Shown here: positions 1 through 53,049 of the stretch, in pieces | Position numbering within the stretch: position 1 is the first letter of the stretch | Layout: each line of letters starts with the position of its first letter | DNA from: Pristiophorus japonicus | Lineage: Eukaryota | Assembly: GCF_044704955.1 (NCBI RefSeq) | Contig: NC_091987.1 | Location: forward strand, 81,034,001 to 81,098,000 | Direction: 5' to 3' | Length of the DNA: 64,000 nt | The notes under the pieces: generated by a model | Database searches by the model: none | What the model was told of the DNA's origin: nothing | What the model saw: the letters and a program-made list of their open reading frames with translations, nothing else | Made by a program: the position numbers and the translations under genes

Positions 1-3000
1 GCCTGGGTGCTCGCTGTGGAGTTCCCTGATGAATGCTTCCCTTCCCTTCTGGGGCATGACTACCCGGCTGCCCCATAGTAGGCAGTCGGCTTGGATGGAG
101 AGTTCATCCATCCATCTGTGAAACGGTCTGACCTCTTCAGGGCATGCTTCATGTGCGGGCGCCCAATCCCCAGTCAGGACACATTTCTTAATCAAGGATA
201 GGAGGGGATCTCTGTTTGTCCAGGTTTTGATCTGGTGGGCTGTGATGGGGGAGCCTACGCTGTCGAAAGCATCGACAGCCATGACCATCTCAGCGCTTTG
301 CTCCGCTGCCCCCTCAGTGGTGGCCAGTGGAAGCCTGCTGAGCGCGTCAGCGCAATTTTCGGTGCCTGGCCGGTGCCGTATGATGTAGTCATAGGCAGAC
401 AGCGTGAGAGCCCATCGCTGTATGCGAGCTGACGCATTAGCATTGACAGCTTTGCTGTTGGACAACAGGGATGTTAATGGCTTGTGGTCCGTTTCTAACT
501 CGAACCGTCTGCCAAAAAGGTACTGGTGCATCCTTTTCACCCCGTAGACACATGCGAGTGCTTCCTTTTCAACCATCCCATATCTCCTTTCTGCTTGAGA
601 GAGCGACCTGGAAGCATAAGCCACAGGTTGGAGTTGGCCCTCATCATTACTCTGCTGCAACACGCACCCAACCCCATAGGATGATGCATCACATGTCAAA
701 ACCAATTTCTTACAGAGGTTGTACAGAGTCAACAGCTTGTTAGAACAAAGCAGGTTCCGCGCCCGATTGAAAGCCCGTTCCTGACAGTCCCCCCAAAACC
801 AATCACAACCCCTTACACAGGAGCACGTGTAGCGGCTCCAACAATTTGCTTGAGTTCGGCAGAATGTTCCCGAAATAGTTCAATAGTCCCAGAAATGAAC
901 GCAACTCTGATGTGTTGCCAGGCCTGGGTGCTCGACGGATCACCTCCGTTTTGGATTCGGTAGGCCGGATCCCATCTGCGGCAACCCTCCTGCCCAAAAA
1001 CTCAACCTCTGGGACCAAAAACACACACTTGGACTTCTTTAGTCGCAGGCCTACCCGGTCCAGTCGGCGTAGAACCTCCTCCAGGTTGTGGAGGTGTTCC
1101 TCGGTGTCTCAATCCGTGATAAGGATGTCGTTCTGAAATACGATTGTCCTGGGGATGAATTTGAGCAGGCTTTCCATGTTCCTTTGAAAGATAGCGGCTG
1201 CTGATCGAATGTCAAACGGACACCTGTTGTAAACAAACAGCCCCTTGTGCATGGTGATGGTGGTCAGTAGCTTAGATTCTTCGGCCAGTTCTTGGGTCAT
1301 GTAGGCTGAAGTGAGGTCCAACTTGGTAAACAGTTTGCCGCCTGCCAGCGTGGCAAAAAGATCCTCCGCTCTCGGAAGCAGGTATTGGTCTTGTAGTGAC
1401 ACTTGGTTGATGGTGGCCTTGTAGTCGCCACAGACCCTGACCGAGCCATCCGTTTTTCGAACAGGGATGATGGGGCTTGCCTAATCACTGAATTCAACGG
1501 CCAAAATTATGCCCTCTCTTAGCAACCTGTCCAACTCACTCTCAATATTCTCCCGCATCACATACGGCACAGCTCTGGCTTTGTGGTGCACTGGTATGGC
1601 ATCCGGGGTGATGCGTATCACTACTTTGGTACCTTTGAAAGTACCGACACCAGGTTGAAATAATGACTCAAACTTTTGTAGCACCTGTGAGCATGAACTT
1701 CACTCCACAGATGAAATGGCGTGCACATCCCCCCATTTCCAGTTCATCTCGGCTAGCCAGCTCCTCCCCAAAAGCGCGGGACCATTTCCCGGGACAATAC
1801 AGAGTGGCAGCCGGTTCTCTGATCCATTATGTGTGACCACCAACATTGCACTGCCTAGCACTGGGATGATCTCTTTGGTGTACGTCCGTAATTGTGTGTC
1901 AATGCGTTCTAATTTGGGTCTGCTAGCTCTGAGTGGCCATAGTTTCTTGAATTGTTGGACACTCATAAGTGACTGGCTGGCTCATGTGTCCAGCTCCATG
2001 CGTACCGGGATGCCATTTAACAGTACTCTCATCATCATAGGTGGCGTCTTTGTGTATGAGCTGTGGATGTTTGCCACATGAACCCGCTGAACTTCAGCAT
2101 CCATTGCTGTGTCCCATGCATAACCCTGTCTTGCAGACCTCTCTTGTGGTTCATCCGCTTCATAAACCAGCCTCGCTGCGGGCTTTCTGCACATTCTGGC
2201 CAAATGTCCACTGAAGTTACAATTTCTACAGATAAATTGTTGAAACCTGCAAGTTTTCGCAGCATGTCTGCCCCCGCACCTCCAGCATGAGCTGAGATTG
2301 TTGTGAACAAAAGAGCGTTACCAGGCATTCCTCTCTGATTGTCTCTTTGATTACTCTTGAGCACTCTGTTAGTGGGTGTCAATGGCCCCATCCTGGGACG
2401 TATTGTCCCTTGTGATAGTGTAAGTGTCCGTTCAACCTGACATTGTCTCTGTTGAGGACCCACCCTAGAGTCTGTTACTGCCTGGGTGGTGTCGAATTGC
2501 CCTTGCCTGCCTGCGGGGTTCTGAGTCGTGTTTACCATGTTAACTCCCTGCTCCATCGCCATATTGGGAGCAGAGTTGCGCGCGTATATGTCCTCCCCCG
2601 CCATGAAGGTTTGAGCAATCAACGCCGCTGCTTCCAAGGTCAAGTCCTTGGTCTCAATTAGCTTCCTAAAAATCCCGGCATGACCAATGCCCTCAATGAA
2701 GAAATCCCACAACATCTCCCCGCTGCAGGCGTCTGTGAACTTACAGAGGCTGGCCAAGCGCCGAAGGTCCGCAACAAAGTCTGGTATGCTCTGCCCTTCA
2801 CGACGTCGGTGCATATAGAAATGGTGTCGGGCCATGTATATACTGCTTGCCGGATTGAGGTGCTCACCAATCAGTGTGCTGAGTTCCTCAAAGGTCTTGT
2901 CCACCGGCTTCTCGAGAGCGAGCAGGTCTTTCATCAGCACGTGCGTCTTAGGTCCACAGCTGGTCAGTAGATGCGCCTTTCGCTTGTCAGCCGCTGCCGC

Positions 3001-3398
3001 TCCCAGCCAGTCCTTCGTGACAAAGCTCTGCTGCAGCCTCTCAACGAAATCATCCCAGTCCTCACCAACACAGTACCGTTCCTCTGTGCTACCGGTGGCC
3101 ATTCTCGTGAGTCATTGATTCCCGTTTCTCGTCGCCAAATGTTATATCCTTACACTCTACAGCAAATCAACATGAGGCACATACTGGAGACAAGGTCACT
3201 CTGTGACCTGTACCTTTATTCACAGGACCAAGGAGTCTGACCCTGCATGGGACCTCCCTTTATATATCTGGATAACCAGGTGAGGAGTGTCTCCCAAAAG
3301 TTCACCCCCTGTGGTCAAGGTGTGCATTTCTTAGGTGTATACAGTGTACAGTTTTGTTACATGAAGGTTACAGTTGCATGAAGATTACATCCATGACA
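1..3398 (-). mobile_element. Gypsy/Ty3 LTR retrotransposon, degraded (gag, protease, RT, partial integrase region); runs off the window start
   Basis: Gag N-terminus EDWDDFVERLQQSF (2035-3102); CCHC knuckles near 2200-2290; protease ELDT; RT motifs KLDLTSAY, RCPFDIRSAAAIFQ, VFQNDILI, FLGLLNYF; multiple stops and frameshifts. Confidence 0.93.
3140..3398 (-). repeat. 5' LTR of the Gypsy element, followed by PBS TGGCGACGAG (3128-3137)
   Basis: TG...CA termini; AATAAA and TATA-like motifs on the minus strand; PBS matches the 3' end of tRNA-Ser(GCU) as recalled. Confidence 0.8.
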
Positions 3399-12230: not shown

Positions 12231-13340
12231 TCCTTGACTATCTGGTGGCAATCATGGAAATATATAGAGTTCATTAGGGAGTGTACAGTGCAATTTAAAA
12301 CTTCTTTTGAAATTGCAAATGCACTATTTCTGTAACATGTAGTGGCTAATTTCCATTACTAATGTGTACTTCAGAGCTGTTGCAAATTGCACTAGAATTG
12401 TTATTTTAATAGCCTTCAAATTTTGTATGATTATTGACAGCTCCAGGTATAGATTTCAGCAGGTGCAGGGAGCATAAAATCACATCAACAATATAATTCA
12501 TACATTTTGATATAGATAAAGAAAGAATTTGCATTTATACGGTGACTTACTGTGTCTCTCAGACTTTTTGCAAAGCACGACATATAGAATGAATTACATT
12601 GTGCAATTATTTTTTTATGGTTAAATGTGGCTGTAATTTTGCACAAAGCAAGTCTCCAGAATCAGCAGAGATGAAGGACCAATTATTTGGATTGTTTTGG
12701 CAGTGGTAATGAGTGGGTGCTCAAAAGATTTGGATTAATATCATAATTGCTGAGAAAGTCTTCTGGTATACTAATAGACAAAATATAATAATTAAATTAA
12801 AGTACTCAGAGAGTTTTTATCAATGAATTTTCTAATCATTGAAAGTTTCATTTTCTAAATAAAAGTATTCTGTGAATTTGGTGCTTTGTATTGTGATGTT
12901 TTAATACAACAAGCAGGACTTCATGGTACACAGTACAATGAGCTTTGTACCCCTGTACCATAACGTAAGGTTATACAACACTCCACAGGTTACACTGGTA
13001 GATAAATTTGGGGAGAGTTTAACACTGCCCTCCTGACAGAAACAGGGTGGGCTGGCAGGTAAAGCCCATGGGACTTACCTGCCGAGAATCCGCTGCCGTC
13101 ACGCGGGTTCTGATTTTAACCTGCTCTTCTGAGCAGGAGCAGGAAAGGCTGCTGGAAACCGACGGATCCTTCCTTAAATATGCAGATCGGGTTCTGATGA
13201 TGTCGACAAGTCCCAAATACGAATTTAACCAGAGGCCTGTGCAGGGAAGCCATTATGGCATTCTCGCCAGGCCAATCTATCAGGAAGAGACAGGGCCAGA
13301 AAAGGCCTAAGAAAAAAGAAATACTTGTATTTATATAGTG

Positions 13341-13944
13341 TGTTAGCATGAATGTTTTCTTAGAAGAATCACTCAACACTCAGAGTCGGTTCCAACGCCA
13401 ATGCGGCCTTTATTTTCGCATGCGGGGAGGAAGCCTCAGGACTGGATCCAGGCACTTCTCTCCGACGAACAAAGAAACTCATCGATATTTATATGTTTTA
13501 CAATAGTTCTTTACAGTTACTCAGCCCACTTCGGCTGGACACAATCCAATCGTAACGATTATAGATTACTTATAAGTTTCTTTAACCCAATAGAATTTTG
13601 TCAGCTCGGGCTGATTAATGACCTCGTTATGTGAGGCAGGTTCTCCTCTTATCTCTGTTCCTCGGGGTTCGGCTGTGTGAAGTCACTGATTATACCAGTG
13701 TACTATAATGGTTCGTTATAATTATCTTGTATCCAAGGCATTCCTGGTAGTGGGCCTCACAGGGTCATTGCTCGGTCATTGCTCGGTCAGCCCCAGTTCA
13801 TTACTTGACTAATGGGGTTCCCATCATGCTTGGGCAGCCATTTTATATGTGGCCACTTTAAACTTATATGAGTTTAGATATATTCAGCAGGTGCCTAATG
13901 TCTAGTGTTTTGATATATTCGGCAGGTGCCTAATGCCTACAACA
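13341..13944 (-). repeat. 3' LTR; PPT (GAAAGGAGGGAAT on minus) at 13945-13957
   Basis: TG...CA ends; 8 differences from the other LTR by manual comparison. Confidence 0.95.
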
Positions 13945-14082
13945 ATTCCCTCCTTTCGGTAAAGGGACTAGTCCTATTCCCCTTTAACCGACCGCCCTAC
14001 TTTTATTAAGATTTTGTGCACAGCCCGGTACTCCCTGCCTCAACGTGCTGGCCAGTCATGCGGTTTCAGGAGTCCCGGTTGC

Positions 14083-16203
14083 TTAAATCAAATTAACAAA
14101 GGCCAAATCCTCCTGCCCCTTTATTAGACAGGCTTGTTTAGTATCCAGGGACCGGTCATGGGTCCCTCTTCGCTGTGCGTGGTGCCTGCATGCCTGGCAG
14201 GCCATTATACCCCATGTTATTACTAAGATCAATTGTACCCCGACCAGTATGTGTGAAATTATTCGAATCCAAGGATGGATGTTCACATTTATTCCCCAGT
14301 CCTAGACCTTTCTCCACCAACTCTGACTTTGTAAGTCTACATCGATATCTTCTTCCAGTACTTTGATTTTAGTTTGAAGTTGGTGGTAGAGCTTTACGGA
14401 TTGACCCACCCTGAGCCTCAATTCTCGTAATACTTCGGTTAGATGTGGGATAGGGACCTGATCTGGCTCGTCATAATCCTGCAAATGATCGTGGAGCTGA
14501 TCGGTTACATCAATAACTTCGGGCTTCCGGCGCCTAACCTGGGTGATATGCGCTTGCCCAATCGTGACAGGTCGTAGCGGCGCAAAGCAAAAGTTCGGCT
14601 GTGGTATCGGGCACTGCAGATCATTATACCGGTATGAACGCTCTGTGGTAGAGACGCAGTATCTTCCCTTCCCTCCGTAGCCTGCCCTCACAAAGTGCCT
14701 GTGTGCGGGCGCTATTTCTAGTACACACCTGTCGGTTCGGTTAAACCCGCACTCGTCTAGCTCACCTCGGCCTACCGGTTGAGGGCATACTGTGATCTCC
14801 CCCCTTTGCTTGCATTCTGTTAGTTAAATTCCGATAAGTATGTTGTTTCGGCGAACGGCGGAGGTGGTGGTCAGATAGTAACGTATGGAGACATTTTCCC
14901 GTATTACTCCGATATTCTCTAGTTGGTACAGGGGGAACGGCCCTGAGTCCGGCGTGGCTATAGGGATCATCAGGACTATCCCTATCCCAATATTCCTACC
15001 CATCTGGCAATCTGGAATTGCTGGGTATACTTGGGTCAGTCCCTTCAGAGTACAATTATCCAGTGTACCCCTCTGGTTAGCCAACTGAGCCAAATGTGAA
15101 CTGTCTATCCAATCTGGAACTTCCCAGCATTGGATCTGGTCACGATTATGGCGGATCTGTCCCACCATCCACAGACCATAAGCGTGACAGAGTTGCCCCT
15201 GTCTTTGCTTTCCTGTATCTTCTTTTTCTCTATCAATGAGGTGATTGATGGTTTTGGCGTGAGCTTCCAGGACTGAGATGCCATCCAACTGGATTCCTAG
15301 TTTGGCTTGGTCTTCCTGTTTTTGCTCCACCCTCTCTAATAACCCCTTCATCACCCCTCTAAGCTGTTCCACCCTCTCATTTAACCCTTGTATATCTATC
15401 GAGTTTACTACGGAGGTCCCTGTATTGAAACCGGTAGCAACATCATTAACTATTCCCCTCTTTATCCTGGGGGCTGACCCCTGTCCTCGGAATCTACTGG
15501 CACCCATTGCATCGGCAGCCTGCTGCATTACAACTTTACTTAATACATTGTACATTTTCCTTGATTGTTCTGTACAGTATTCCGGCAGCTGGATGCCTGA
15601 AATATTGATCAGGACAGGCACAATTTCATGTTTAACATTATCATACAATAATTCCCCTTCGTTGTACATTACAATCCCATTTTCTGGTCCCTTAGTAGTT
15701 ATGGGACAAGGCAGTTCCTCGGGCAATGTAGTGGTTCTTATGGGGCATGGTGTCGGAGGGGGTGAGAAGCATACATACAATGATATTGCAGCCGCCCCCA
15801 CCTCCTCGTAGTACCCACACAGCCCCACTCCATTTTTACGGATGACTGATTGCTGGGACTGTCCCGGAGGCGCGCAAATTATGCCAAAAGTACATTCATC
15901 AGGCCCTTTGACATCCCTCCGTTTAATGCAGCTGCTCCTTATACCCGTGAAGCACTGTACACATACCCGGTTCTTATTAGGATTCACTTGTAACCATGCA
16001 TTAAAATAAGTCCTGTCCTTGCTCCAGTCCTTGGCTGCTGGGATGCACATTCCATCCGTTAAATTAAACAAGACTCCATAGTTCATGTAGTTGTTTATTT
16101 CCTGAGTGCACTGCAATCCGTTGGTGTCATTTAGTGTTTGTGTGGGTCTTGAGGTTCCCAGTATCATGAGTCCTCAGAGTCGAAGTCACCACTGCGGTCC
16201 CAT
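14083..16203 (-). pseudogene. env: env: class I fusion glycoprotein of about 706 codons, one reading frame with 4 premature stops
   Basis: ORFs 14824-16167, 14302-14691 and 14083-14286 share one frame; signal-like start MGPQW*LRL*GLMILG; furin site RIKR|GIV; heptad repeats; Cys-rich region; WWRKV*DW; TM IISHILVGVQLILVITWGIMAC. Confidence 0.88.
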
Positions 16204-16599
16204 CTTGGTGAGTGTTTTATCTGAAAATTTTAAACAGACAGCCTGGTCGTCACCAGGTGTTAGATTCTGGTCTACTTGTGTCACTGTCACTCTGTGGAAT
16301 CGGAGGTAAGGATTAGGTTAACCATATTCTTTATAGTCGTACCATCTCTATCACTTCATGTCCCTGTCTTGGCTACCATCGGTTTTGCGTTTGAGCCTGC
16401 TGTGCTCGAGCCTGCACGATGACCCATCTAAATATTATCCAAACTCCAATCAACACCAATGCCACCATTATTCCTCCAAACATCGCTGTCTGCTTTACCG
16501 TTAGGTTGCGTTTGTGGACTACACCTACCCACCGTGGGGTACATTGGCTCTATTGCCATAGGTGATGGTGCTATGGCTGCACACTGCACTATCCGTCTA

Positions 16600-18945
16600 G
16601 TCCCGTTTTTTAAAACATCTCTTCCAGCCTGTTTATCTTAGCTTTTAACTCTTGACCAGCTAGTTCCGTTTTATTTTTATTCTGAATATCCCACCATTTC
16701 CTCTGTCTGTCAGGTGAGTCTTCTTTATTTTATTAAGAAATCCAAATTAATAATGTCCAGTATAAAACAGCTGTCAATGGAAAGGGTTAACTCCTTTACA
16801 GATTTGTCAGAAAGCCTGATGTCATTACGTGACTTCACGTAATCATCCGAAAAATTATTTTTTTTCAAGTCTTTGTGCCTTCAAAACTTGCTTAGAAATT
16901 AGGAATCCGTTAAACAGCATAAATCATTAGTAAAGTGGTCATAATAAAAATCTTCTCATCGGGAAAGACAGCATTTTAGATTAAACTCCAATTTTTTCTT
17001 AACTTCTAATTCAAGTACTTGCCAAATAATTTTTTTTTTTAATTGATTTAAAACGAGACCACACATTTTTAATAGCTATTTTGTTTACTGAAATTCAATT
17101 TTTTTTTTTTTATTTCTCTCAGCACAAAATCTAAACTTCTGTGCCAGTTCCATTTTTTCTTTCTGTGCTGAGTTAACATAGCTTAGATCTTTTCTTCTCG
17201 TTATTTTCATACATTCCAACATTTCGGGTTTTTTTACGGTTCCGTTCACTGGGCAAACCTTGTGTTTTATTTCTCTCTCAGCACAAAATCTAAACATCCG
17301 TGCCAGTTCCATTTTCTATAAGAATTTAAAAATTCAGTAAGATTCTCTAGTTCCCAGTTTTTTCTTTCTGTGCTGAGTTCGCATAGCTTAGATCTTTTCT
17401 CCTCGTTATCTTCAAAACCCTCCTGCTTGTTTAGACTGTTCGGGACTTTTCTTGATAAACACTGTCCATTTTGGAAACCTTTTCAAACTGCATTGAAACT
17501 TTCTCATAATTTAAAATCATTATCAATGTAGAGTGTTTTTTACCTCTTCCAATTTTTTTTTCTTTTTCTAATTAAACCAATATCTTTTTCACAGCAAACA
17601 TCAACTAGTATTTAGTAAGTTATGTCTTTTTCCAATCACAAACACATTTTTTTTCAGCACTTATTTAGTATGTTACATCTTTTTTATTCAGATCTCCTTT
17701 CTTCAAATTAGATTTTGTATTTTACACGGAGGGCTCATGACTCCATAAATTTGTTAATTTAAAATCATTTGTTTACTTTCAAAGTGGTGTCTTTATCTTT
17801 TTCTTTTCTCCATAACTGGAATGGAGTCAGCAATTAGGCTTTGAGGGCTGCTTTTCATTATCTCAAAATGCTCCAGTTTCAAAGTCGTTAAAATGTCTCT
17901 TCTAAACTGCTAAAGCTTGTTGTTTTTAACATTTTTCAAAAGTCCCTTTTACACCTTCGCAGATAGCTCGCCACTCGCCCAGGAGTTTGACCTGATCCCT
18001 GAAGGTATTTCTAGATTGTTTCCAAACCTTTTAGTTTTATATCTCCTTTTTTTTCTTTAAGAGATCAGATTTAATTTAATAATTTTTTTTTAATCCACCT
18101 CAGTATTTTGCTGTGCCTTCTCTGAATATCTCAAAATCCCAATTCAAACTTTGTAATTTCAATCTTTATTTAAAACTTTTTTTTTGCTAGAAGCTTTTTT
18201 TAAAAGGCATTCTTTATCTCATTCCGAGACTAAATTTATGTCTTTCAACCCAATGTAATCAATCATTGCATGTTTTCTTTCGACAAGTAAGTGAGCGTGT
18301 CAAATAAATTATTTTTTTTAACCACCGGGACCATGTATTTTTTATCTTTTGCTCAACAAACCTATCCTTTGTACATTTCCTAGCTCCGTAACTTATCATC
18401 CGAATAAATCCACACCTGCGTTTCTAACTTAAAATGTCTTAAAACTTCCCACATACAGGACAACACTACAAAGGGTTAAAAAAACTTTCACTCTGTTTAG
18501 AAAAGTGGGTGGAGCTAAAATAAACAGACACTTGCATTCCTCTTCCAATCAGACTTTCGGAAACATGAAAAAATAAAAAAAATTCATTCCGCAGTCAAAA
18601 AATCACACAAGGACTCTCAACGACAGACATTCACAAAAGTCTCTCTTCATTCAACAAAGCTTATTAATTTTTTTTTTGGCCGGCTCTATTCTTGGATCCA
18701 TACTTCACTTAAGATAATCACTATCAGGTTTTTTTATTTCTTACACATTGATTTACTTCCTCTGTTAGTTTTATGTGGGCTCGCAGTATCAAGACCACAG
18801 CCTTTTCATTTTTATTCGCTGGCAGGTCCTGAGGATCCCACCCTGCTCTAATCATTTTCTCGATTAGTTTCTTTTGTTTTTCTGCCAGGTGGCGGGTAAG
18901 GGACCCTTCTGGTCCCCACTCGAGGTTACTTGCTTTCGTGGCCAT
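16600..18945 (-). pseudogene. Decayed, extremely A-rich gag-like region with internal duplications
   Basis: Lys-rich ORF remnants at 18724-18945 and 17085-17312; position between PBS and env; no RT or integrase motifs seen. Confidence 0.45.
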
Positions 18946-19475
18946 TCCTGGGTAGGACTAGAACCGTTAGGAATCTACTCTCAGAGGTCCGCTTTCTACC
19001 TAGCGTAACTTGTAGTAGACCGTCTCCTGGCTACTGTCAGGTCACAAGTTCTGCTGTTACACAAACTTATACAATTCTTAAAACGCGTTTAAGCAATTCC
19101 CGCAGTGCTCTACGTACCTTAACGACTACCTACCACCGCTCTGCCCGTTGGTCCGACCCTGTTCACAGGTTTGGATTCCGTTAGCAGCTGTATACAGCTT
19201 GGATCTACCCCGGGGTATATCTCAAATCATACTACTGGGTCCGGAAGATGTCTTTCGGTATCATGATCCCACGGTCTAAGTGTGTTCCTGGCACCTACTT
19301 AGTTCCTGGCCATCACGTGAGACTAAAGTCCTCTTAATTCAGGCTCAGGCAAGGTGTTTGAGATATTGGACCGTCTCCTCGTTTCGATCAATGAGCATCC
19401 ACCTTCCGCACCCGTTATAAAATTTTGTTTAAGGTATACTCACCCAGTTTCTCCAAGAGCGTCAGCGACCCCGAA

Positions 19476-19493
19476 ATCCTGTTCATGACGCCA
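19476..19493 (-). promoter_or_regulatory. Primer binding site, tRNA-Ser(CGA)-type
   Basis: TGGCGTCATGAACAGGAT next to the 5' LTR; 17/18 match to the recalled vertebrate tRNA-Ser(CGA) 3' complement TGGCGTCACGAACAGGAT. Confidence 0.8.
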
Positions 19494-19494
19494 T

Positions 19495-20098
19495 TGTTAG
19501 CGTGAATGTTTTCTTAGAAGAATCACTCAACACTCAGAGTCGGTTCCAACGCCAATGCGGCCTTTATTTTCGCATGCGGGGAGGAAGCCTCAGGACTGGA
19601 TCCAGGCACTTCTCTCCGACGAACAAAGAAACTCATCGATATTTATATGTTTTACAATAGTTCTTTACAGTTACTCAGCCCACTTCGGCTGGACACAATC
19701 CAATCATAACGATTATAGATTACATATAAGTTTCTTTAACCCAATAGAATTTTGTCAGCTCGGGCTGATTAATGACCTCGTTATGTGAGGCAGGTTCTCC
19801 TCTTATCTCTGTTCCTCGGGGTTCGGCTGTGTGAAGTCATTGATTATACCAGTGTACTATAATGGTTCGTTATAATTATCTTGTATCCAAGGCATTCCTG
19901 GTAGTGGGCCTCACAGGGTCATTGCTCGGTCATTGCTCGGTCAGCCCCAGTTCATTACTTGACTAACGGGGTTCCCATCATGCTTGGGCAGCCATTTTAT
20001 ACGTGGCCACTTTAAACTTATATGAGTTTAGATATATTCAGCAGGTGCCTAATGCCTAGTGTTTTGATATATTCAGCAGGTGCCTAATGCCTACAACA
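19495..20098 (-). repeat. 5' LTR
   Basis: Direct repeat of 13341-13944; adjacent to the PBS. Confidence 0.95.
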
Positions 20099-20505
20099 AA
20101 GTGCCTTTCACAACCACTGGACTATTTTGTCTATCCTCAGTGAGAATTGGCGGCGGCCAATTTGCACACAGCAAGCACCCACAAACAGCAATGTGACAAT
20201 ATTCAGATAATCTGTGTTTTTTGTTGTGTTGATTGAGGGATAAATATTGGCCACGACACCAGGGATAACTCCCTCTGTTCTTCAAAATAGTGCCATGGGA
20301 TGTTTTACAGCCACCTGGGAGATCAGACAGGGCCTCGGTTAACGTCTCATTCGAAATACACCACCTCCGACAGTGCAGCACTCCCTCAGTACTGCACTGG
20401 AGCGTCAGACTAGATTTATGTACTCAAGTCCCTGGATTGGGACTTGAACCCACAACCTTCTGACTCATAGGCGAGTGTGCTACCCACTAAGGCACATCTG
20501 ACACT
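20099..20505 (-). mobile_element. Deu-domain SINE whose 3' tail (13315-13340) was separated by the ERV insertion
   Basis: tRNA-like head with GGTTCAAGTCCC B-box, Deu core; tail rejoins across the TSD. Confidence 0.8.
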
Positions 20506-20806
20506 GATTGTAAGTTAAGTCTTTTTCATTTTTTTGATGTTCCTTGTGGAGGAGCAGGAGTTCTCCTGCAATCCTGAACTTCCACAGCCATTTTGGGCAT
20601 TTCAGTACCTGATTTCCAGAATATTAGAGTATGCTGCTCTCTCTCAGCATAACATCAGCAGTGTGTGAATACTGGAGTGGAGCGATTATCATCAAAATGA
20701 ACTGAACCTTGACTTTAAATGGGTTGATCTGTGATGTGTCAGCAGGGTGATGGGTTATTAACGTTGGATTTTCTACACAAACTAATTATGTTTTTTTTGC
20801 CCCAAG

Positions 20807-21172
20807 GACAAAGTCAAAAGCTAACAGTTTCCCAGACACCATCTGTGATCAAGGCGCTAAAAGGCCAGACAGTGAAAATATACTGTTCGTACAGCGATGA
20901 AAACGGAGAACAGTTGAGGATTACGTGGGGAAAACATAACAGCGCACATAATCTTTGTGATTATACTTACAATAAAAATAAAACAAAATACAGATCATGG
21001 TATTGTTTAGAACAGGCTAACATTACACTGGACTTCTCAACAAACTCGTCATCTTTAATATTCCATGATCTGCATTTAAATGACTCCGACATTTACTTCT
21101 GTCAGCTTTCAATTGAAATACCTCCCCCTATACAAACAGCAGAAGGTACCGGCACGCACCTAACAGTGGAAG
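20807..21172 (+). CDS. VJ-C1 IgSF receptor, coding exon 2: VJ-type Ig V domain, CD28/CTLA-4/NKp30-like
   Basis: Acceptor ttttttttgccccaag; B-strand Cys (VKIYC), Trp (ITWG), DSDIYFC, EIPPP, J-like EGTGTHLTVE; phase-1 donor G|gtgagt. Confidence 0.93.
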
Positions 21173-22188
21173 GTGAGTTTAACTTAGTGACAGCCTAGAA
21201 TGGAAACTGACACCAAAATAAAAAGAAGTGCCAGCTGCTACATTACAACAGTGAGTACACTTCAACAAGAACGCTGTTGGCTGTAAAGTGCTTTGGAACG
21301 TCCTGAGAGCTTGAAAGGCACTATTTAGGTGCAAGTTTGTTCTTTCTTTTTTGTTGGATGACACCAAGCTTGGGTTTTTAAAACATGCAGGTTATAAGAG
21401 ACCGACGGGAAGGGTTTCCTTCCTCGGAGTGAGATGCATAAATGAAATGGAAAAGAACAAAGAAGCTGATAGAGAAAGAGAATTTGAAGGCTAGAAGTGT
21501 GAAAAGGATAGCTTTTTATTCTCAGTAAGTGTGAGGGAGATGCTGGAAGAGCCTCCTGAGATACGGGGGCAGGTGTTTAGGTTTAGAATGGATTTAGGGG
21601 CTAAAATTGCCCCGTGCTGGGGTTGGAGCGCATAGTTCGAATTAGCTGAAATGTTAGCGCCGGCCGAGATGGTTGGGAGGAAGTTTATCATTTCGACATT
21701 TTGTTTCCCAAATCTGAGAGTTGAGCTGTTGGAGCGCTAAATGGCCTCCATGTGCGCTGTAAGGGCGCTGCAGGGGAGGTAGTGGAAACGAGCCGCCAAT
21801 TTCAGGTGAGTTTGATTCACTCATAACGAGTCACATGGTCATTGAGCTTCTTAAAGCGGATGCCTTGCTCTACTGATTCTCTTCTTCCTCACAGTTCAGT
21901 TGCTGCTTGCTGAGGGCCATCATGGCAACTGGGAAAGGCAGTACAAGGGCCCCGCGGTTCATAGACACGGAATTGGAGACACTGGTGAGGACAGTGGAAG
22001 ACACTGGTGGGGACAGTGGAAGAAAGGAGGCGGATCCTTTCCCTCCAGCTGGGAGGTTCGCTCCACAGCTTCTCAGAGCTATTTGGGCAGAGGTGGCTGC
22101 TGAGGTGCCGGACACCTCTGTCGTTCACCGCACCAAACAATGTTGCAAAATGTTGTGTGATCTCACTCGTGTGGTGAACGTGAGTGCA

Positions 22189-22450
22189 TGTTCCCTCAAC
22201 TCTTCCCTATGAACCTGTGAGCCTCAGTCTGTTCCCACAACTCTGCCCCATGAACCTGTGAGCCTCGGTCTGTTCCCACAACTCTTCCCTATGAGCCTGT
22301 GAGCCTCGGTCTGTTCCCACAACTCTTCCCCATGAACCTGTGAGCCTCGGTCTGTTCCCACAACTCTCCCCTATGAACCTGTGAGCCTCCGTCTGTTCCC
22401 ACAACTCTCCCCTATGAACCTGTGAGCCTCGGTCTGTTCCCTCAACTCTT
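22189..22450. repeat. Minisatellite, 41-bp unit, about 6 copies
   Basis: Unit AACTCTTCCCTATGAACCTGTGAGCCTCGGTCTGTTCCCAC. Confidence 0.92.
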
Positions 22451-22841
22451 ACAAAGCAGCCTCTGTGCAGACTCCGCAAACCAGCATTTAACTCAGGAAG
22501 TGCCTGCTCACAGTTATTGGCTCATTTGATGCTTTGCTTAGAATCACAGCAGCTTGAGCTGCCCATGCATTCCTTCCACATACATAAGTGCACAGTGACT
22601 CACCAAGCTTCCTTTCTTTTGCAGGCCAAGATGGCACATAACAGGCTTCAGCAGCAAACAGGAGCGGTGGGGTGGGGGAGCTTAAACTGCGTGAGCTCAC
22701 AGACGTGGAAGAGCGAGTACTTCGTCTTATGGGCCCGCAGATGGCCATCCCCATGGCAGTGGGGACCGAGCCCGCTCGAGCCAATATTGGTAAGTGAAAC
22801 CCTTCCTCTCATCCCACCTTCCACTTTAAGCATAAAGCCTT

Positions 22842-25590
22842 ATAGAAACATAGAAAATAGGTGCAGGAGTAGGCCATTCGGCCCTTCGAGCCTGCACCGC
22901 CATTCAATAAGATCATGGCTGATCATTCCCTTAGTACCCCTTTCCTGCTTTCTCTCCAATACCCCTTGATCCCCTTAGGCATAAGGGCCATATCTAACTC
23001 CCTCTTGAATATATCCAATGAACTGACATTAACAATTCTGTGCGGCAGGGAATTCCACAGGTTAACAACTCTGAGTGAAGAAGTTTCTCCTCATTTCAGT
23101 CCTAAATGGCCTACCACTTATCCGAAGATTATGTCCCCTGGTTCTGGACTTCCCCAACATCGGGAACATTCTTCCCTCATCTAACCTGTCCATCCCGTCA
23201 GAATCTTATACGTTTCTATGAGATTCCCTCTCATCCTTCTAAACTCCATTGAATAAAGGCTCAGTTGATCCAGTCTCTCCTCATATGACAGTCCAGCCAT
23301 CCCAGGCATCAGTCTGGTGAACCTTCGCTGCACTCCCTCAATAGCAAGAATGTCCTTCCTCAGATTAGGAGATCAAAACTGAACACAATATTCCAGGTGA
23401 GGCCTCACTAAGGTCCTGTACAACTGCAGTAAGACCTCCCTGCTCCTATACTCAAATCCCCTAGCTATGAAGGCCAACATAGCATTTGCCTTCTTCACCG
23501 CCTGCTGGACCTGGATGCCCACTTTCAGTGACTGATGAACCATGACACCCAGGTCTCGTTGCACCTCCCCCCTTTTCTTAATCTGTCGCCATTCAGATAA
23601 TATTCTGCCTTCGTGTTTTTGCCCCCAAAATGGATAACCTCACATTTATCCACATTATACTGCATCTGCCATGCATTTGCCCACTCACCTAACCTGTCCA
23701 AGTCACCCTGCAGCCTCTCAGCGTCCTCCTCACAGCTCACACCGCCACCCAGTTTAGTGTCATCTGCAAACTTGGAGATATTACACTCAATTCCTTCATC
23801 TAAATCGTTAATGTATATTGTAAAGACCTGGGGTCCCAGCACTGAGCCCTGCGGCACTCCACTAGTCACTGCCTGCCATTCTGAAAAGGACCCGTTTATC
23901 CCGACTCTCTGCTTCCTGTCTGCCAACCAGTTCTCTAGCCATATCAGTACATTAACCCCAATAACATGCACTTTGATTTTGCACACCAGCCTCTTGTGCT
24001 GGACTTTGTCAAAAGCCTTTTGAAAGTGAAATACACCACATCCACTGGTTCTCCCTTGTCCACTCTGCTAGTTACATCCTCAAAAAATTCCAGAAGATTC
24101 ATCAAACATGATTTCCCTTTCATAAATCCATGCTGACTTGGTCCGATCCTGTCACTGCTTTCCAAATGCGCTGCTATTTCATCGTTAATGATTGATTCCG
24201 ACATTTTTCCCACTACTGATGTCAGGCTAACAGGTCTATAATTACCTGTTTTCTCTCTCCCTCCTTTTTAAAAAAGTGGTGTTACATTAGCTACCCTCCA
24301 GTCCATAGGAACTGATCCAGAGTCGATAGACTGTTGGAAAATGATCACCAATGCATCCACTATTTCTAGGGCCACTTCCTTAAGTACTCTCAGGCCCCAG
24401 GGATTTATCGGCCTTCAATCCCATCAATTTCCCTAACACAATTTCCCACCTAATAAGGATATCCTTCATTCCTCCTTCTCACTAGACCCACTGTCCCCTA
24501 GTACATTCAGAAGGTTATTTGTGTCTTCCTTCATGAAGACAGAACCGAAGTATTGGTTCAATTGGTCTGCCATTTCTTTGTTCCCCATTATAAATTCACC
24601 TGAATCCGACTGCAAGGGACCTATGTTTGTCTTCACTAATCTTTTTCTCTTCACATATTTATAGAAAATTTTGCAGTCCGTTTTTATGTTCCCTGTAAGC
24701 TTCCTCTCGTACTCTATTTTCTCCCTCTTAATTAAACCCTTAGTCCTCCTCTGTTGAATTCTAAATTTCTCCCAGTCCTCAGGTGTCTTGCTTTTTCTAG
24801 CCCATTTATATGCCTCTTCCTTGGCTTTAAAACTATCCTTAATTTCCCTTGTTAGCCATGGTTGAGCCATCTTCCCAGTTTTATTTTTACTCCAGACAGG
24901 GATGTACAATTGCTGAAGTTCATCCATTTGATCTTTAAATGTTTGCCATTGCTTATCCACCGTCAACCCTTTAAGTATCCTTTGCCAGACTATTCTAGCC
25001 AATTCACGTATCATACTGTCGAAGTTACCTTTCCTTAAGTTCAGATCCCTAGTTTCCGAATTAACTGTGTCACTCTCCATCTTTATTAAGAATTCTACCA
25101 TATTATGGTCACTCTTCCCCAAGGAGTCTCGCACAAGATTGCTAATTAGTCCTTTCTCATTACACATCACCCAGTCTAGGATGGCCAGCTCTATAGTTGG
25201 TTCATCAACATATTGGTCTAGAAAACTATCCCTAATACACACCAGGAAATCCTCCTCCACCGCACTGCTACCAGTTTGGTTAGCCCAATCAATATGTAGA
25301 TTAAAGTCGCCCATGATAACTGCTGTACCTTTATTGCACACATCCCTTATTTCTTGTTTGATGCTCCCAAACCTCACTACTACTGTTTGGTGGTCTGTAC
25401 ACAACTCCCACTAGCGTTTTCTGCCCTTTGGAATTTCGCAGCCCCACACATATAGATTCCACATCATCCAGGCTAATGTCCCTCCTTACTATTGCATTAA
25501 TTTCCTCTTTAACCAGCAACGCCACCCTGTCTCCTTTTCCTCTCTGCCTATCCTTCCTATATGTTGAGTTCCCAGCCTTGGTCACCCTGT
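22842..25590 (-). mobile_element. CR1 LINE, 5'-truncated and frameshifted, inserted in the Harbinger Myb gene
   Basis: APE and RT motifs (GDFN, SDH, GVPQGSVLGP, KFADD); GAAACATA tail. Confidence 0.93.
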
Positions 25591-26899
25591 CTCCGTGATG
25601 CCAATTACATCATTTAGCCGCTCCTGACCATCTTTCTTTCTGCATATCTGGCCCCATTTTCTCACCTTAACGCCACTATTGTGCCATTTGTGCTTTCAGA
25701 CAATGCCCCGGATGAGTCTCAGGCTATTCCTGAGCCCCCCAAAACTCAGTCTGCAGGGAGAAGGAGGAGGGGGCAGAGGAGGAGGAGGATGCAAGCACTG
25801 CATCACTGCTTCTCACACTCACACGCACCAGCTCAGATACTGGGAGTATGCGGTCGTTGCAGTTCAGCTGAGGAGAGGGGCCTGCACTGGGTGATGCACT
25901 GGGGAGCATGCTGCAGCAGGCTCACGGGGTATGGCAAGCTCGGGAGCCTGCTCCCCAGAGGGCGAGTTCGCACACGAGTTCTGCTCCACAGGCCTCAGAT
26001 TAGGACCTCATTGGGGGAGGCGTTTGAACAAAGAGTGATGACCTTGCACTGCGACATAATAGAGGCAATGGCAAGGGTGTCCGAGAGCCTGTCGCAAGTG
26101 GTTAGCAGCATGGAGGAGTCTGCCTCCTGCATTGTAGACAGCTCTACACACACCATAGAGCCCATCATTGCCATTGTGCAGATGATGGTGGACCAGACGG
26201 ACCGTGTGGATCCAAACCTCAAGAGATGTCTCATTGGCGATGTGGCAGCTTCTATTTGGTCACAGGTGGAAGCAACGCAACATCTTCCTGCTGTAATTGA
26301 TTCAATGGTTGCTCGCATGGATGCGCAGACTTTACTCATGCAGTCTCACACTGCCCTGACGGCTGCCATCACCGCTGGGTCCATCACGGTCCACCGGGGA
26401 TCACACGGTGCCACAGCAGTCCAACAATCTGTGCATAGGCTGAGGTGTTGCCCCAGGGGAGTGGCACTGGCTCAGTGGAGCAGGAACCTGCTGTCCTCTC
26501 TCAGGACAACAGCATTTCTGATCCTACCACTGCCACTCCGTGATTGCAACTATCCATGGGCGTCACCCAGCCTGAGGTGCTTCAGTCTGCAGCTGGGCCT
26601 TCAGCCAGAGGACGTCCTAGAAGGCCATCTGTAGTCTCTGGCTCAGAAACACATCAGCCTTTCACCAGCTGCAGCCAGAGGGGAGACACTTGGGCGTAGT
26701 TGTTTACATAAAAGTGGATATAAAATGCACAAAGGTGAATGATATAAGTTATGTTGATGTAGCACTTTTTACACAGAGATATTGATTTTCATCTTTACTG
26801 TTTGCGCTTGTATCTGATTTCAATGTTGGGCATGTGGTCGGGAAAGAAGGGCTCATGATGTGTTTATCGGGGGTGGGGGGTGGAAGTGGTAAGTGGCGA

Positions 26900-29800
26900 G
26901 GACCTTATTGGAACTGAGATCTTCTGAGACGGTCTCGGACCTCCCTTGTTGTATCGGAACACTGTCGATGCTTCCTGCCTGCTGGCTGTGCCTCCTCCTG
27001 AGGTGTAACGTCTATGTCTTTGGCCAATGGCTGTGCCATCATTATTGCCAGGTTGTGATCATGTAGCAGACAACGACAAAGAGGGATACCTGGTCAGGCG
27101 AGGACTGCAGGACTCCTCGTGAGCGGTCAAGACAGCGGAACCATTGCTTCAGCACTCTGATGGTCTGCTCAATGATGCTCCTGGTGGTGGCATGGCTCTC
27201 ATTGTAAGAGTGCTGGGCAGGAGTGGTGGTGTCGCGGAGGGGAGTTATCAGCCAGGAGCATAGCAGGTAGCCCTTGTCTCCAAGGAGCCAGCCGCGAGCT
27301 GGCACCCCGGTCTGATGCAAGTGGAAGGCATCGTGGCTGCTGCCAGGATAGCGGGCATTAACAGCCTCTATTATGCGTGTGTGGTCACACACCAAGTGGA
27401 CAATGAGTGAGTGGCAGCATTTTCGGTTTCTAACGATCTCAGGATTGCGGTGCGGAGCCCTCAATACGACGTAGAAACATAGAAACATAGAAACTATGTG
27501 CAGGAGTAGGCCATTCGGCCCTTCTAGCCTGCACCGCCATTCAATGAGTTCATGGCTGAACATTCAACTTCAGTACCCCATTCCTGCTTTCTCGCCATAC
27601 CCCTTGATCCCCCTAGTAGTAAGGACCTCATCTAACTCCTTTTTGAATATATTTAGTGAATTGGCCTCAACAACTTTCTGTGGTAGAGAATTCCACAGGT
27701 TCACCACTCTCTGGGTGAAGAAGTTCCTCCGCATCTCGGTCCTAAATGGCTTACCCCTTATCCTTAGACTGTGACCTCTGGTTCTGGACTTCCCCAACAT
27801 TGGGAACATTCTTCCTGCATCTAACCTGTCTAACCCCGTCAGAATTTTAAATGTTTCTATGAGGTCCCCTCTCATTCTTCTGAACTCCAGTGAATACAAG
27901 CCCAGTTGATCCAGTCTTTCTTGATATGTCAGTCCCGCCATCCCGGGAATCAGTCTGGTGAACCTTCGCTGCACTCCCTCAATAGCAAGAATGTCCTTCC
28001 TCAGGTTAGGAGACCAAAACTGTACACAATACTCCAGGTGTGGCCTCACCAATGCCCTGTACAACTGTAGCAACACCTCCCTGCCCCTGTACTCAAATCC
28101 CCTTGCTATGAAGGCCAACATGCCATTTGCTTTCTTAACCGCCTGCTGCACCTGCATGCCAACCTTCAATGACTGATGTACCATGACACCCAGGTCTCTT
28201 TGCACCTCCCCTTTTCCTAATCTGTCACCATTCAGATAATAGTCTGTCTCTCTGTTTTTACCACCAAAGTGGATAACCTCACATTTATCCACATTATACT
28301 TCATCTGCCATGCATTTGCCCACTCACCTAACCTATCCAAGTCGCTCTGCAGCCTCACAGCATCCTCCTCGCAGCTCACACTGCCACCCAACTTAGTGTC
28401 ATCCGCAAATTTGGAGATACTACATTTAATCCCCTCATCTAAATCATTAATGTACAGTGTAAACAGCTGGGGCCCCAGCACAGAACCTTGCGGTACCCCA
28501 CTAGTCACTGCCTGCCATTCTGAAAAGTACCCATTTACTCCTACTCTTTGCTTCCTGTCTGACAACCAGTTCTCAATCCATGTCAGTACACTACCCCCAA
28601 TCCCATGTGCTCTAACTTTGCACATCAATCTCTTGTGTGGGACCTTGTCAAACGCCTTCTGAAAGTCCAAATATACCACATCGACTGGTTCTCCCTTGTC
28701 CACTCTACTGGAAACATCCTCAAAAAATTCCAGAAGATTTGTCAAGCATGATTTCCCTTTCACAAATCCATGCTGACTTGGACCTATCATGTCACCTCTT
28801 TCCAAATGCACTGCTATGACATCCTTAATAATTGATTCCATCATTTTACCCACTACCGATGTCAGGCTGACCGGTCTATAATTCCCTGTTTTCTCTCTCC
28901 CTCCTTTTTTAAAAAGTGGGGTTACATTGGCTACCCTCCACTCTATAGGAACTGATCCAGAGTCAATGGAATGTTGGAAAATGACTGTCAATGCATCCAC
29001 TTTTTCCAAGGCCACCTCCTTAAATACTCTGGGATGCAGTCCATCAGGCCCTGGGGATTTATCGGCCTTCAATCCCATCAATTTCCCCAACACAATTTCC
29101 CGGCGAATAAGGATTTCCCTCAGTTCCTCCTCCTTACTAGACCCCCCGACCCCTTTTATAACCGGAAGGTTTTTTGTGTCCTCCTTCGTGAATACCGAAC
29201 CAAAGTACTTGTTCAATTGGTCTGCCATTTCTTTGTTCCCCGTTATGACTTCCCCTGATTCTGACTGCAGGGGACCTACGTTTGTGTTTACTAACCTTTT
29301 TCTCTTTACATATCTATAGAAACTTTTGCAATCCGTCTTAATGTTCCCTGCAAGCTTCTTCTCATACTCCATTTTCCCTGCCCTAATCAAACCCTTTGTC
29401 CTCCTCTGCTGAGTTCTAAATTTCTCCCAGTCCCCAGGTTCGTTGCTATTTCTGGCCAATTTGTATGCCACTTCCTTGGCTTTAATACTATCCCTGATTT
29501 CCCTTGATAGCCACGGTTGAGCCACCTTCCCTTTTTTATTTTTATGCCAGACAGGAATGTACAATTGTTGTAGTTCATCCATGCTGTCTCTAAATGTCTG
29601 CCATTGCCCATCCACAGTCAACCCCTTAAGTATCATTCGCCAATCCATCCTAGCCAATTCACACCTCATACCTTCAAAGTTAGCCTTCTTTAAGTTCTGG
29701 ACCATGGTCTCTGAATTAACTGTTTCATTCTCCATCCCAATGCAGAATTCCACCATATTATGGTCACTCTTCCCCAAGGGGCCTCGCACAATGAGATTGC

Positions 29801-30960
29801 TAATTAATCCTCTCTCATTACATAACACCCAGTCTAAGATGGCCTCCCCCCTAGTTGGTTCCTCGACATATTGGTCTAAAAAACCATCCCTTATGCACTC
29901 CAGGAAATCCTCCTCCACAGTATTGCTTCCAGTTTGGTTAGCCCAATCTATGTGCATATTAAAGTCACCCATTATAACTGCTGCACCTTTATTGCACGCA
30001 CCCCTAATTTCCTGTTTGATGCCCTCCCCAACATCACTACTACTGTTTGGAGGTCTGTACACAACTCCCACTAACGTTTTTTGCCCTTTGGTGTTCTGCA
30101 GCTTTACCCATATAGATTCCACATCATCCAAGCTAATGTCCTTCCTAACTATTGCATTAATCTCCTCTTTAACCAGCAATGCTACCCCACCTCCTTTTCC
30201 TTTTATTCTATCCTTCCTGAATGTTGAATACCCCTGGATGTTGAGTTCCCAGCCCTGATCATCCTGCGCACCATCGTGACAAAGCCAGTCGACCGCTCCA
30301 GCTGCTTCTGTCTCGTCATGGGGAGTGAGAAGTATTCCATCCTCCTTCCGAACAGAGCATCTGTGATGTCACGAATGGAGCAATGGGCAGCATACTGGAA
30401 GATGTTGGAGATGTCTGCTGTGGCTCCCTGGAAAGATCCATTGGCATAAAAATTGAGGGCGATGGTGACATTCACTGCCACTGAGAGAGCTGTCCTCACC
30501 CTTGTCTGATGCTCCAGGTCTGGCTGCAGCAGATGACGCAGCTCTGTCACCACATCTTTCCTAAATCGCAGTTTCGGACACAATGCTCCTCAGAGAAGTT
30601 AACGTAGGAAAACTGTTACCAATAGACCCTGGATGTGTACAGCCTTCTATTGCCACATCTGTGTATGCGTCATCCTCTGCCCACGTCCTTATGGACCTCT
30701 TGTTCCTGTCCCTCTGCATCCTCCTGTTGGTGTACCTCTGCTTTTGTTCCCTTTGCCTCTCCCCATCCCTTTCCCTGCCTGTGCCTGTCCCTCTCCCTGA
30801 TTCTCGGAGCATAGGCCTCTCCCACTGCACGTCCCTCTCCTAGTGGGAGCTTTTATCTTTCCCTCTCCCGATGCATCTGCCTCACTAATTCACGACACCG
30901 TTGTCTTCTGTGAACCATCCTCTGATGGTGAAGTTGGAGGAGGCGGTCCACTGCCCATGA
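26900..30960 (-). pseudogene. Harbinger DDE transposase (HARBI1-like) split by a CR1 insertion
   Basis: LRFRKDVV...ALNFYANGSFQ (30265-30583); ARYPGSSHDAF, LLGDKGY, IIEQTIRVLKQWFRCL (27042-27470). Confidence 0.85.
27472..30264 (-). mobile_element. Young CR1 LINE, 5'-truncated, with an uninterrupted 869-aa ORF2 portion (27570-30179)
   Basis: Open APE-RT frame; (GAAACATA)n tail. Confidence 0.95.
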
Positions 30961-35781: not shown

Positions 35782-38193
35782 TACATTCGTATCCGGGTAA
35801 ACGAGAGTTTACTGTAACGGAAAACCCGCCGTAACGGAATTTTAAATATTGCGAGATTCGGAAATTTAACTGTCACACAAGTGAATATCTCGCTCACGTC
35901 AACCTGTCCACATTTGCGATAGTTGATCAATTACACATAAATTGACGCAGGCGTGGACTTCTTGTTCACTTTTCAACTGTCGCACACATTGAAAGCAGTT
36001 CATTGCAACGCATCAGTCTGTCGAGTGTACTTGTTCAAAACACCCTGGAATCAAACAATTTAAAACGCCTTCTGACAGCACCAAAAGCAAATGCAACATA
36101 AGGAAACGAAAAGTATTGAACATTCAGCAGAAATTAGAAATTATAAAGAAGTCTGAAGCTGGCAGAAGTGTGTGTACTTTGATGGACGAATATGAAGTTG
36201 GATCATCAACAATTTATGATATCAAGAAGTAAAAGAAAGATTGAGAAAGTTTCACCGCTGCTTCTGAATCTCCCGTGAAGGCAATGTCCCGCACGAATTT
36301 GCGAAAGCTGAAGCTTGACAAACTAGACCAAGTGCTTTATGAATGGTTTTCTTTGAAACGGTCTGAAGGTGTGGCAATTTCAGAGTCAATGATTACAGCA
36401 AAGACCAAGGACTTGAAGATGAGAATGAATTTAACTGAAGAGTACATTTTTTCACAAGGCTGGCTCACACGTTTTAAGCATCGACACGGCATTTGCCAGC
36501 TGGATGCGACGGGCGAAAAAAAATCAGCAGACAATGAGGCCGCACAGAATTATTCAAGAACATTTGCTGAAATGGTGCAGGAAAAGAAATTGACTGCAGA
36601 TCAAATATACAACGCCGATGAGACTGGCGTACTATGGAAGTGTTTGCCAACTGCTACATTGGCTGCAGCAGGGGAGAAGGAAGCTGTAGGCTTTAAAATA
36701 AATAAGGAGGTTAACAATCTTGAATTGTGCCAATGCCTCTGGAGAACATTCCACTTTTAGTGATTGGCAAATCAAAGAAACCACGTGCTTTAAAAGGAAT
36801 TGCTCATTTACCAGTTAGCTATAAAGCTCAGAAAAGTGCGTGGATGGACAAGGACATATTCATGGAAAGGTTTTCAACAGAATTCATTCCCCAAGTTCGA
36901 GAAAACATGAAGAAAATAGGCAAACCTAATGGAAAGTGTGTGCTGCTTTTGGACAATTGCATAGCACACCCGCATAAGTCAAAATTAGTGTCTAGCTGTG
37001 GCAACATCTTTGCATGCTATTTGCCCCCCAATGTGACCTCGCTCATTCAACCTATGGATCAGGGCGTCATACAAAACTTCAAGTGCCACTATAGGAATAA
37101 CTTCATGCGCAAATTAATTAATAGCGATCAAACAATCTCTGATTTCCAGAGAGCATACAATATTAAAGATGCCATCTACGCATGTTCGCTGGTATGGAGA
37201 GAAGTAAAAAACATTACAATGAAGAGGTGTTGGTGCAAGTTGTGGCCCGCTGTCATAGTTGAAGAGAGTGCTTCTGATGACGAAGAATTTGAAGGTTTTC
37301 ATGTATGAGCTAATAAAAAACAGGCTGTAAAAGAAATCATGGAAATTGTTAGCAGTACACACGAAACAACCACACTTAAATCCTTAGCAGAAGATGACAT
37401 TGCTAAGTGGATAGATGTTGACATCGAAACAGATGTAACACAAACTTATACTGACGAGGAACTTATCGGCGTAGTCACCAAGAAAGACAAATCTAACAAA
37501 GAGATGAGCGATTCAGACAATGAAATAGCATGCAAAGATGTCGCCACAACTAAACACTAATTTTGACTCATGCGGGTGTGCTCTGCAATTGTCCAAAAGC
37601 AGCACACACTTTCCATTAGGTTTGCCTATTTTCTTCATGTTTGCTCGAACTTGGGGGACGAATTTTGTTGAAAACTGTTCCATGAAAAGCAAAAAAAGAC
37701 TTGGACATGTGCTGAAGAAGCAATGAAATATATCGTTGTTTTTTTTGAGGAGAATTCTCATTTTACTTCTCAGGAGGTTCTGCAAACTCATATCATCCAC
37801 AACATTTTAATTAAGAAGAAAATGAATTCATTTAAACAAGCAGATATAAGATTGCTATTTTGAAAATCAATCTCAAATGTCAACGCAGAAAAAGGAGCTT
37901 CTGCAGACGAAGAAACATTGGCAGAAGTAACAAATTTAACAGAATAAAATAATGAACTAAATATTTTGTTTCATTTATTAGACATTTATTTTTAATTTCA
38001 AAAAAGTTTTAATTTCTGAATAGCTCATTGGAAAGAGCGGATCAAGATCTATATACGATTTATAAAATATTTTGTGGGTGGTTCTATCACCTTCAAATAT
38101 TAACTTTAAAATGTAAACTTGCCCTACCGAAAAATTAGTTTATCCGGAAATGCCGAATCCCCAAACAATCCGGGTAAACGAGAGTTTACTGTA
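35782..38193 (+). mobile_element. pogo/Tigger-type DNA transposon with disrupted transposase (about 36090-37910)
   Basis: CENP-B-like HTH (KRKVLNIQQKLEII), [35 protein letters not shown]; right TIR ...GAGAGTTTACTG followed by TA. Confidence 0.9.
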
Positions 38194-52972: not shown

Positions 52973-53049
52973 CTCCTTTCTGTCTTTTGTTTTTGCCTCC
53001 TTTTTGTTTCCCTATATCTCCCTGCATTGGTTCCCATCCCCCTGCCATA

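Follow-up and report, generated by a model that had tools for sequence, protein, structure and literature searches.

The question raised by this locus was to which retroviral lineage an envelope gene with the layout of a viral fusion (F) protein belongs, and how a shark retrovirus came to carry it. In the initial annotation of the window, i.e., the whole 64,000-nucleotide stretch analysed, positions 14083 to 16203 had been described as an ERV envelope with F-like architecture, and two readings had been offered, a cartilaginous-fish lokiretrovirus and an independent capture of an F-type env. Our analysis favours a different answer. We assign a probability of roughly 0.78 to the following explanation: the env gene, broken by stops, is that of a pol-less copy within an abundant shark ERV family; pol-bearing relatives have a true retroviral reverse transcriptase (RT), likely of the grade of snakehead retrovirus (SnRV); and the Env of the family is predicted to be of the F type (class Ib).

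The motifs named in the initial annotation were all found in place in one frame, 16203-14083 on the minus strand. The N-terminal subunit (15457..16203) contains a Cys-rich head, a Pro/Thr linker, F2-like strands plus a helix, and the RIKR furin site (15468-15457). The F1-like C-terminal subunit (14083..15456) comprises 457 aa, in agreement with the earlier estimate of about 460 residues after the furin site, and is built in the order fusion-peptide position, heptad 1, beta-rich Cys domains, heptad 2, Trp-rich segment, TM and tail. A single TM helix was located at about 14262-14206 (hydropathy peak 2.16). Regex tests on the Env frame for the gamma-type traits, CX6CC and an immunosuppressive domain in a short TM subunit, were negative for both, as had been noted before. 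Four in-frame stops, rather than two, were present, two of them in the leader (16188-16186 and 16176-16174) and two in the C-terminal subunit (14826-14824 and 14304-14302). The first stop was common to all 26 pol-less copies that cover its site, and the ATG at 16203 therefore opens no working frame; each of the remaining three was found in only 1 of 25-27 covering copies. Given the shared stop in the leader and the missing clear signal peptide, the env of the pol-less subfamily may never have been functional. In the first heptad, the window env falls short of most copies by 15 nt. The N-terminal head had no match in Pfam and PDB sequence searches or in the Atlas feature search, and no Ig-like head was seen in the window-copy Env; one distant family member gave a weak V-set match (E 0.045).

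This env is part of a provirus of 6.76 kb that runs from 20098 to 13341 on the minus strand, the strand of all features that follow, and from which pol is absent. The 5' LTR (19495..20098, TG...CA, 604 bp) and the 3' LTR (13341..13944) are 98.7% identical, with 8 differing sites, 5 of them at CpG (K2P 0.0134). By two rates, taken from PMC7947760 and PMC4422223, this divergence would date the insertion to about 3 to 30 million years ago. The primer binding site (19476..19493) is complementary to tRNA-Ser(CGA), with one mismatch in this copy, and its pattern was found within a tRNA-Ser cga gene predicted by ARAGORN in the same genome. A candidate splice donor in the leader (19128..19133), the motif of which is kept across copies, and a candidate env splice acceptor (16221..16222) are suggested by a junction in the annotated protein P0003. 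A remnant of the gag N-terminus (18727..18945) matched, at 95% on the DNA level, the beginning of gag in copies with pol. In place of gag-pro-pol there is an A-rich block (16650..18700, 32% GC) with many A-runs, 93-97% identical across pol-less copies. Decayed gag-pol was considered as the source of this 2-kb block and rejected, as blastn, nhmmer and tblastn gave no match to gag-pol of the pol-bearing copy L043. Upstream of env there is a diverged, broken ORF remnant (16320..16500); its counterpart in copies with pol, located between that gene and env, encodes 66 aa with a single TM. A polypurine tract (13945..13957) adjoins the 3' LTR. The target-site duplications (20099..20103 and 13336..13340) are 5 bp long and differ by one mismatch. 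Among 10 distinct insertions, four had perfect 5-bp duplications, two had five-bp duplications with a mismatch, three had four-bp duplications and one had none, and target-site length was rejected as a class marker because of these mixed lengths.

The provirus was presumably inserted in the tail of a SINE-like repeat (13320-13340 and 20099-20130). An Rfam search over positions 12500-20800 gave no match. On the plus strand, opposite to the provirus, positions 20728-21198 hold a host exon for an Ig V-set domain (Pfam E 2e-14). It is separated from the 5' LTR by some 630 bp and may resemble an NKp30-type receptor exon. Elsewhere in the window, Gypsy-like fragments, a 41-bp tandem repeat, a pogo/Tigger-like transposase remnant and several CR1-like LINE copies were recognised by eye from translations (1-3111, 22148-22516, 36245-37305, 23000-30400 and 48200-54200).

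The family is not confined to this copy, and the Env frame is no chance pattern. A first look at the same genome yielded 15,555 env candidates, and all 150 that were scored had 92-100% identity. Eight named proteins, all from shark, matched Env at E<=5e-127, in support of a shark host at clade level, and named homologues came from four shark genera, a skate and frogs. When the Env profile was run against 1.84 billion proteins, the named matches were again from shark, skate and frog, and none of the 10 that were looked up (2 without a name) was from a ray-finned fish. Among the 29 closest copies, shared env variants had a pN/pS of 0.23 in frame vs 1.25-1.30 in the shifted sense frames, and private variants 0.56 in frame vs 0.93-0.95 in the shifted frames; by these ratios, env was under purifying selection during the family's spread. 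In 27 copies of the pol-less type, shared variants were distributed 27/18/55 over the codon positions and private variants 145/161/182 (Fisher p=0.001). However, 51 of the 100 shared variants of the pol-less copies also occurred in pol-bearing copies, and the rest were few by codon position (3/3/10). In view of these variants and of the leader, the pol-less copies may not themselves have supplied a functional Env. The pol-less element was also observed in two tandem arrays, arranged head to tail (G000:C7:121289112-121318015 and G000:C2:23963534-23976121), in which the repeat unit measures about 5.65 kb and 5.97 kb, and the pol-less copy L056 was nested in pol of a different ERV.

Next, the relationships of Env were analysed at the level of sequence profiles. 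Searches with a single Env protein against Pfam and PDB sequences found nothing, and none of 47 family members matched Pfam Fusion_gly as a single protein. In the Atlas feature search, clusters of Baculo_F/Gypsy and of Fusion_gly came up at 0.89-0.90; recognition was low, and this is a lead only. A profile of the family was more informative: its best match in PDB was foamy Env (E 9e-4), and among the matches listed at E<=10 there was no F protein. Reference viruses were taken from IMG/VR records without names. Most labels follow lengths and motifs; L137, for instance, is taken by us to be walleye dermal sarcoma virus. The 10,688-nt record was taken as SnRV on the basis of its gene layout and the length given in PMC12193657. 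HHalign aligned the Env profile with SnRV Env at a probability of 95.7 over 288 columns spanning the furin site, and with the Env of an epsilonretrovirus (12,708-nt record) at 96.1 over 263 columns. The probability was weak for a foamy Env (52%) and 2.2% for gamma Env, and no gamma Env scored above 3.4 bits against the profile. SnRV Env scored 21.4 bits, vs at most 2.6 bits for 200 shuffles of the same protein.

The core of Env (15693-14275) was modelled as a monomer with AlphaFold from a 47-row alignment with X at the breaks (pLDDT 74, pTM 0.57). In VIA-align, ranks 1-10 were all F proteins, among them hMPV F (Z 11.1, rmsd 5.8, 276 aligned) and RSV F (Z 10.7, rmsd 5.0, 275 aligned). Foamy Env followed (Z 8.2, rmsd 5.1, 252 aligned), and the first unrelated chain had a Z of 6.4; many of the structural matches have a large rmsd. 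The best Foldseek match in PDB was RSV F (E 7e-11). In BFVD, mononegaviral and baculoviral F-type proteins were found together with WEHV1 Env (2e-9), WDSV Env (5e-6) and feline foamy Env (1.5e-4), and no gamma Env was among the 50 matches listed. The three fold searches thus back the F-like architecture proposed in the initial annotation, and the Env core is predicted to be class Ib F-like, with an F core contributed by both subunits and two heptads. It had been held that best structural matches to gamma-, epsilon- or spuma-type Env would speak against this; F proteins did rank first, but foamy Env came next and epsilon Envs appeared in BFVD. The accompanying assumption, short TM subunits in all other retroviruses, was wrong, because foamy Env is itself a published F homologue (PMC11468914), and for the same reason a spuma-type match and F-likeness are not alternatives.

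These results also bear on the idea that a shark retrovirus captured an F gene independently from a negative-strand RNA virus. It could draw on the structural searches, in which F and lispivirus-type glycoproteins were the best matches, above retroviral Envs; this ranking likely reflects the compact size of the shark protein. The profile searches tell against it, as the best PDB match was foamy Env with no F protein at E<=10 and as SnRV and epsilon Env aligned at 96% probability, and so does the family's range of sharks, skate and frogs. Given the homology of this Env to those of SnRV, epsilonretroviruses and foamy viruses, we consider a fresh capture improbable, and inheritance of the F-type Env from early retroviruses is the likely alternative.

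The initial annotation had proposed LTR and env probes as a means to find pol-containing relatives, and this search was successful: relatives with gag-pro-pol were present in the same genome. Pol sequence lay between the same LTR and env in 4 of 20 fetched stretches, two of which represent one duplicated insertion. Their env was 90-93% identical, and their LTR pieces were 90-97% identical in three and 87% in L057. An integrase search gave 145 scored matches, and env was within 1.5 kb in 23 of the 30 loci listed. Gag carries two CCHC knuckles and is followed by an in-frame stop, after which protease, RT, tether, RNase H and integrase are encoded in turn, and the Pfam matches were RVP, RVT_1, tether, RNase H, H2C2, rve and two zf-CCHC. 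The pol-bearing relatives, as distinct from the window copy without pol, therefore have the Retroviridae layout LTR-PBS-gag-pro-RT-tether-RNase H-IN-env-PPT-LTR together with an RT on the retrovirus side. The 66-aa single-TM ORF between pol and env (L043:6440-6650) was open, by pattern, in 21 of 30 loci (L062-L091) and is a candidate accessory protein. Seven integrase loci (L069, L070, L076-L079, L087) kept the small TM ORF and had no env within 1.5 kb; they are possibly an env-less subfamily.

The pol genes made it possible to place the family. Two database proteins, labelled by motif match to the supplement of PMC7947760, served as loki references. The RT motifs of the pol-bearing relatives are LPQG and QYVDD, vs CPFG and IYVDD in the Loki-Str polyprotein of that supplement (PMC7947760). 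The RT scored 195 bits with SnRV, 152-158 with gamma, 132-151 with epsilon-like, 133-143 with foamy and 123-132 with loki-type RTs, and it was 33-34% identical to loki-type RTs vs 46-48% to eel and herring ERVs. A scan of viral contigs with a single RT gave no match. The RT tree and the AU tests used 35 of 56 rows (21 were omitted for redundancy and run time), without ERV-L, ERV4 or fish foamy-like references; from an earlier tree, 3 rows with bad spans had been left out. The shark RT fell on the retrovirus side (93/97), beside a herring ERV (94/93) and outside class I+II (84/97), in an unresolved basal grade with an eel ERV, SnRV, frog ERVs and foamy viruses; no starred clade held it, and it was not part of a loki clade sister to other retroviruses. 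Grouping of the RT with known ERV classes had been named as evidence against the original reading; in the tree, the RT is inside Retroviridae with eel and herring ERVs and outside class I+II. A clade with WDSV-like RT was rejected (p=3e-5), and a clade with loki-type RT was narrowly rejected (p=0.044). Neither a clade with SnRV (p=0.13, and 0.27 in the clade-Huo test) nor one with foamy viruses (p=0.17, fish foamy-like ERVs being outside the set) was rejected or recovered. RNase H scored 8-10 bits against loki-type, below 5 against foamy and 60-86 against gamma, epsilon and SnRV proteins, and by these scores it did not belong to the loki/foamy group. The integrase scores pointed the other way: loki-type integrases gave the best scores (178-180 bits vs 88 for SnRV). 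In the integrase tree (without CGIN1), shark and loki integrases were not sisters, eel and herring ERVs belonged to the same grade, and long branches met at the root.

A lokiretrovirus of cartilaginous fish would account for the best integrase score and for the Env layout and motif order, which by eye are as in the loki Env of the PMC7947760 supplement, and the AU rejection of a shark-loki clade is marginal. The LPQG/QYVDD motifs vs CPFG/IYVDD, the low RT identity and the RNase H scores oppose this assignment. Furthermore, loki RT was found in none of 6 chondrichthyan genomes in PMC7947760, including that of a bamboo shark species with this env in its annotated proteins. The lokiretrovirus reading is thus largely refuted, and we regard it as very improbable. 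Alternatively, a recombinant could have joined gag-pro-RT-RNase H of SnRV grade to a loki-derived integrase-env half. The two loki-like parts, integrase and Env, are indeed adjacent, and env-pol exchange is reported to be frequent in anamniote ERVs (10.1101/2021.11.23.469661). Yet the integrases are not sisters and their grade is shared with eel and herring ERVs, and the named matches of the Env profile are from shark, skate and frog, with no ray-finned fish among the 10 looked up (2 unnamed), so that we consider such an origin unlikely. The family is likely to represent a shark retrovirus of basal, SnRV-like grade whose F-type Env is compact, and not a lokiretrovirus.

In the parent virus, Env would have been translated from a spliced RNA and presumably cut by furin at RIKR. 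By homology of fold, cell binding would fall to the N-terminal head, and membrane fusion would be driven by the two heptads as they close up into a six-helix bundle on the F-like beta core; trimer formation and fusion are putative. The window copy belongs to a deletion subfamily that retained LTRs, primer site, leader and env and has lost gag-pol. Its spread would therefore need proteins of pol-bearing relatives. Because a virus with an F-like Env has an ordinary retroviral polymerase, envelopes of this kind are likely old and widespread in fish retroviruses and not peculiar to lokiretroviruses. Tentatively, and at somewhat less than even odds, we suggest that the class Ib F-type fusogen is the ancestral retroviral Env and that Envs of the gamma and beta types arose later, by replacement or reduction; as part of the same proposal, the shark-skate-frog Env would be a compact form bridging lokiretrovirus, foamy, snakehead and epsilonretrovirus Envs, so that two orthoretroviral lineages also carry the F type. 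Env screens that start from gamma- and beta-type sequences would likely overlook this family, which numbers thousands of candidates in one shark genome. Our literature search found no description of this ERV family and no mention of SnRV or epsilon Env as F-type; supplements such as the Viro3D class I tree and bioRxiv files may bear on this.

Compared with known systems, paramyxovirus and pneumovirus F share with the shark Env the predicted fold, the furin site followed by a fusion-peptide position, and two heptads. They differ in sequence (7-16% identity), and the shark Env has an extra Cys-rich N-terminal head and resides in a retroviral genome. Epsilonretrovirus Envs (WDSV, WEHV1) match in profile and fold, whereas they measure about 1200 aa and an RT clade with WDSV-like viruses was rejected (p=3e-5). 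Foamy Env (8RM0/8RM1; PMC11468914) has a class Ib F core and was the best PDB profile match (Z 8.2 in the fold search); in contrast, the shark Env is smaller, with no N-terminal membrane-spanning leader peptide seen, and shark Gag has CCHC knuckles (two zf-CCHC), which foamy Gag lacks according to PMC5210030. Lokiretroviruses resemble the shark family in an F-type Env of similar size and, by eye, motif order, in a loki-like integrase and in tether plus RNase H (PMC7947760). The features that define their Env (F/PF00523 likeness, RXKR, heptads, TM) were recovered by the fold searches without a direct Pfam match. Unlike theirs, the shark RT is outside the loki clade, RNase H differs, there are two CCHC knuckles and the protease-RT spacing is short; cartilaginous fish are also a host class not reported for lokiretroviruses in PMC7947760.

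Also among the closest systems are SnRV and SnRV-like ERVs (clade Huo), which gave the best RT and protease scores and the second-best Gag score. SnRV has a near-identical last zinc-knuckle stretch, a gag stop in frame with pro-pol, and an Env homologous across the furin site. On the other hand, the shark Env has about 700 aa vs an SnRV frame of 1134 codons with a much larger N-terminal part, the integrase differs, and one clade with the shark virus was neither recovered nor rejected. The primer site of SnRV corresponds to tRNA-Arg, that of the shark family to Ser. SnRV has its env start codon upstream of gag; the shark gene model P0003 uses such a leader, but an ATG was present there in only 1 of 23 leader matches. 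SnRV-like ERVs with env are known in elephant shark (CmiERV lineage I; PMC4422223). Foamy and loki Env are known F homologues (PMC11468914 and PMC7947760), and orthoretroviral Env was placed in a separate class Ia (PMC11468914). Wang and Han left four scenarios open for the origin of loki and retroviral Env, because the two showed no similarity in their analysis (PMC7947760). A compact F-type Env on a retrovirus with LPQG/YVDD motifs, the profile of which also reaches SnRV and walleye-virus Env, favours those scenarios with an F-type Env in the common ancestor, and such an ancestral Env is now testable via Env structures and trees.
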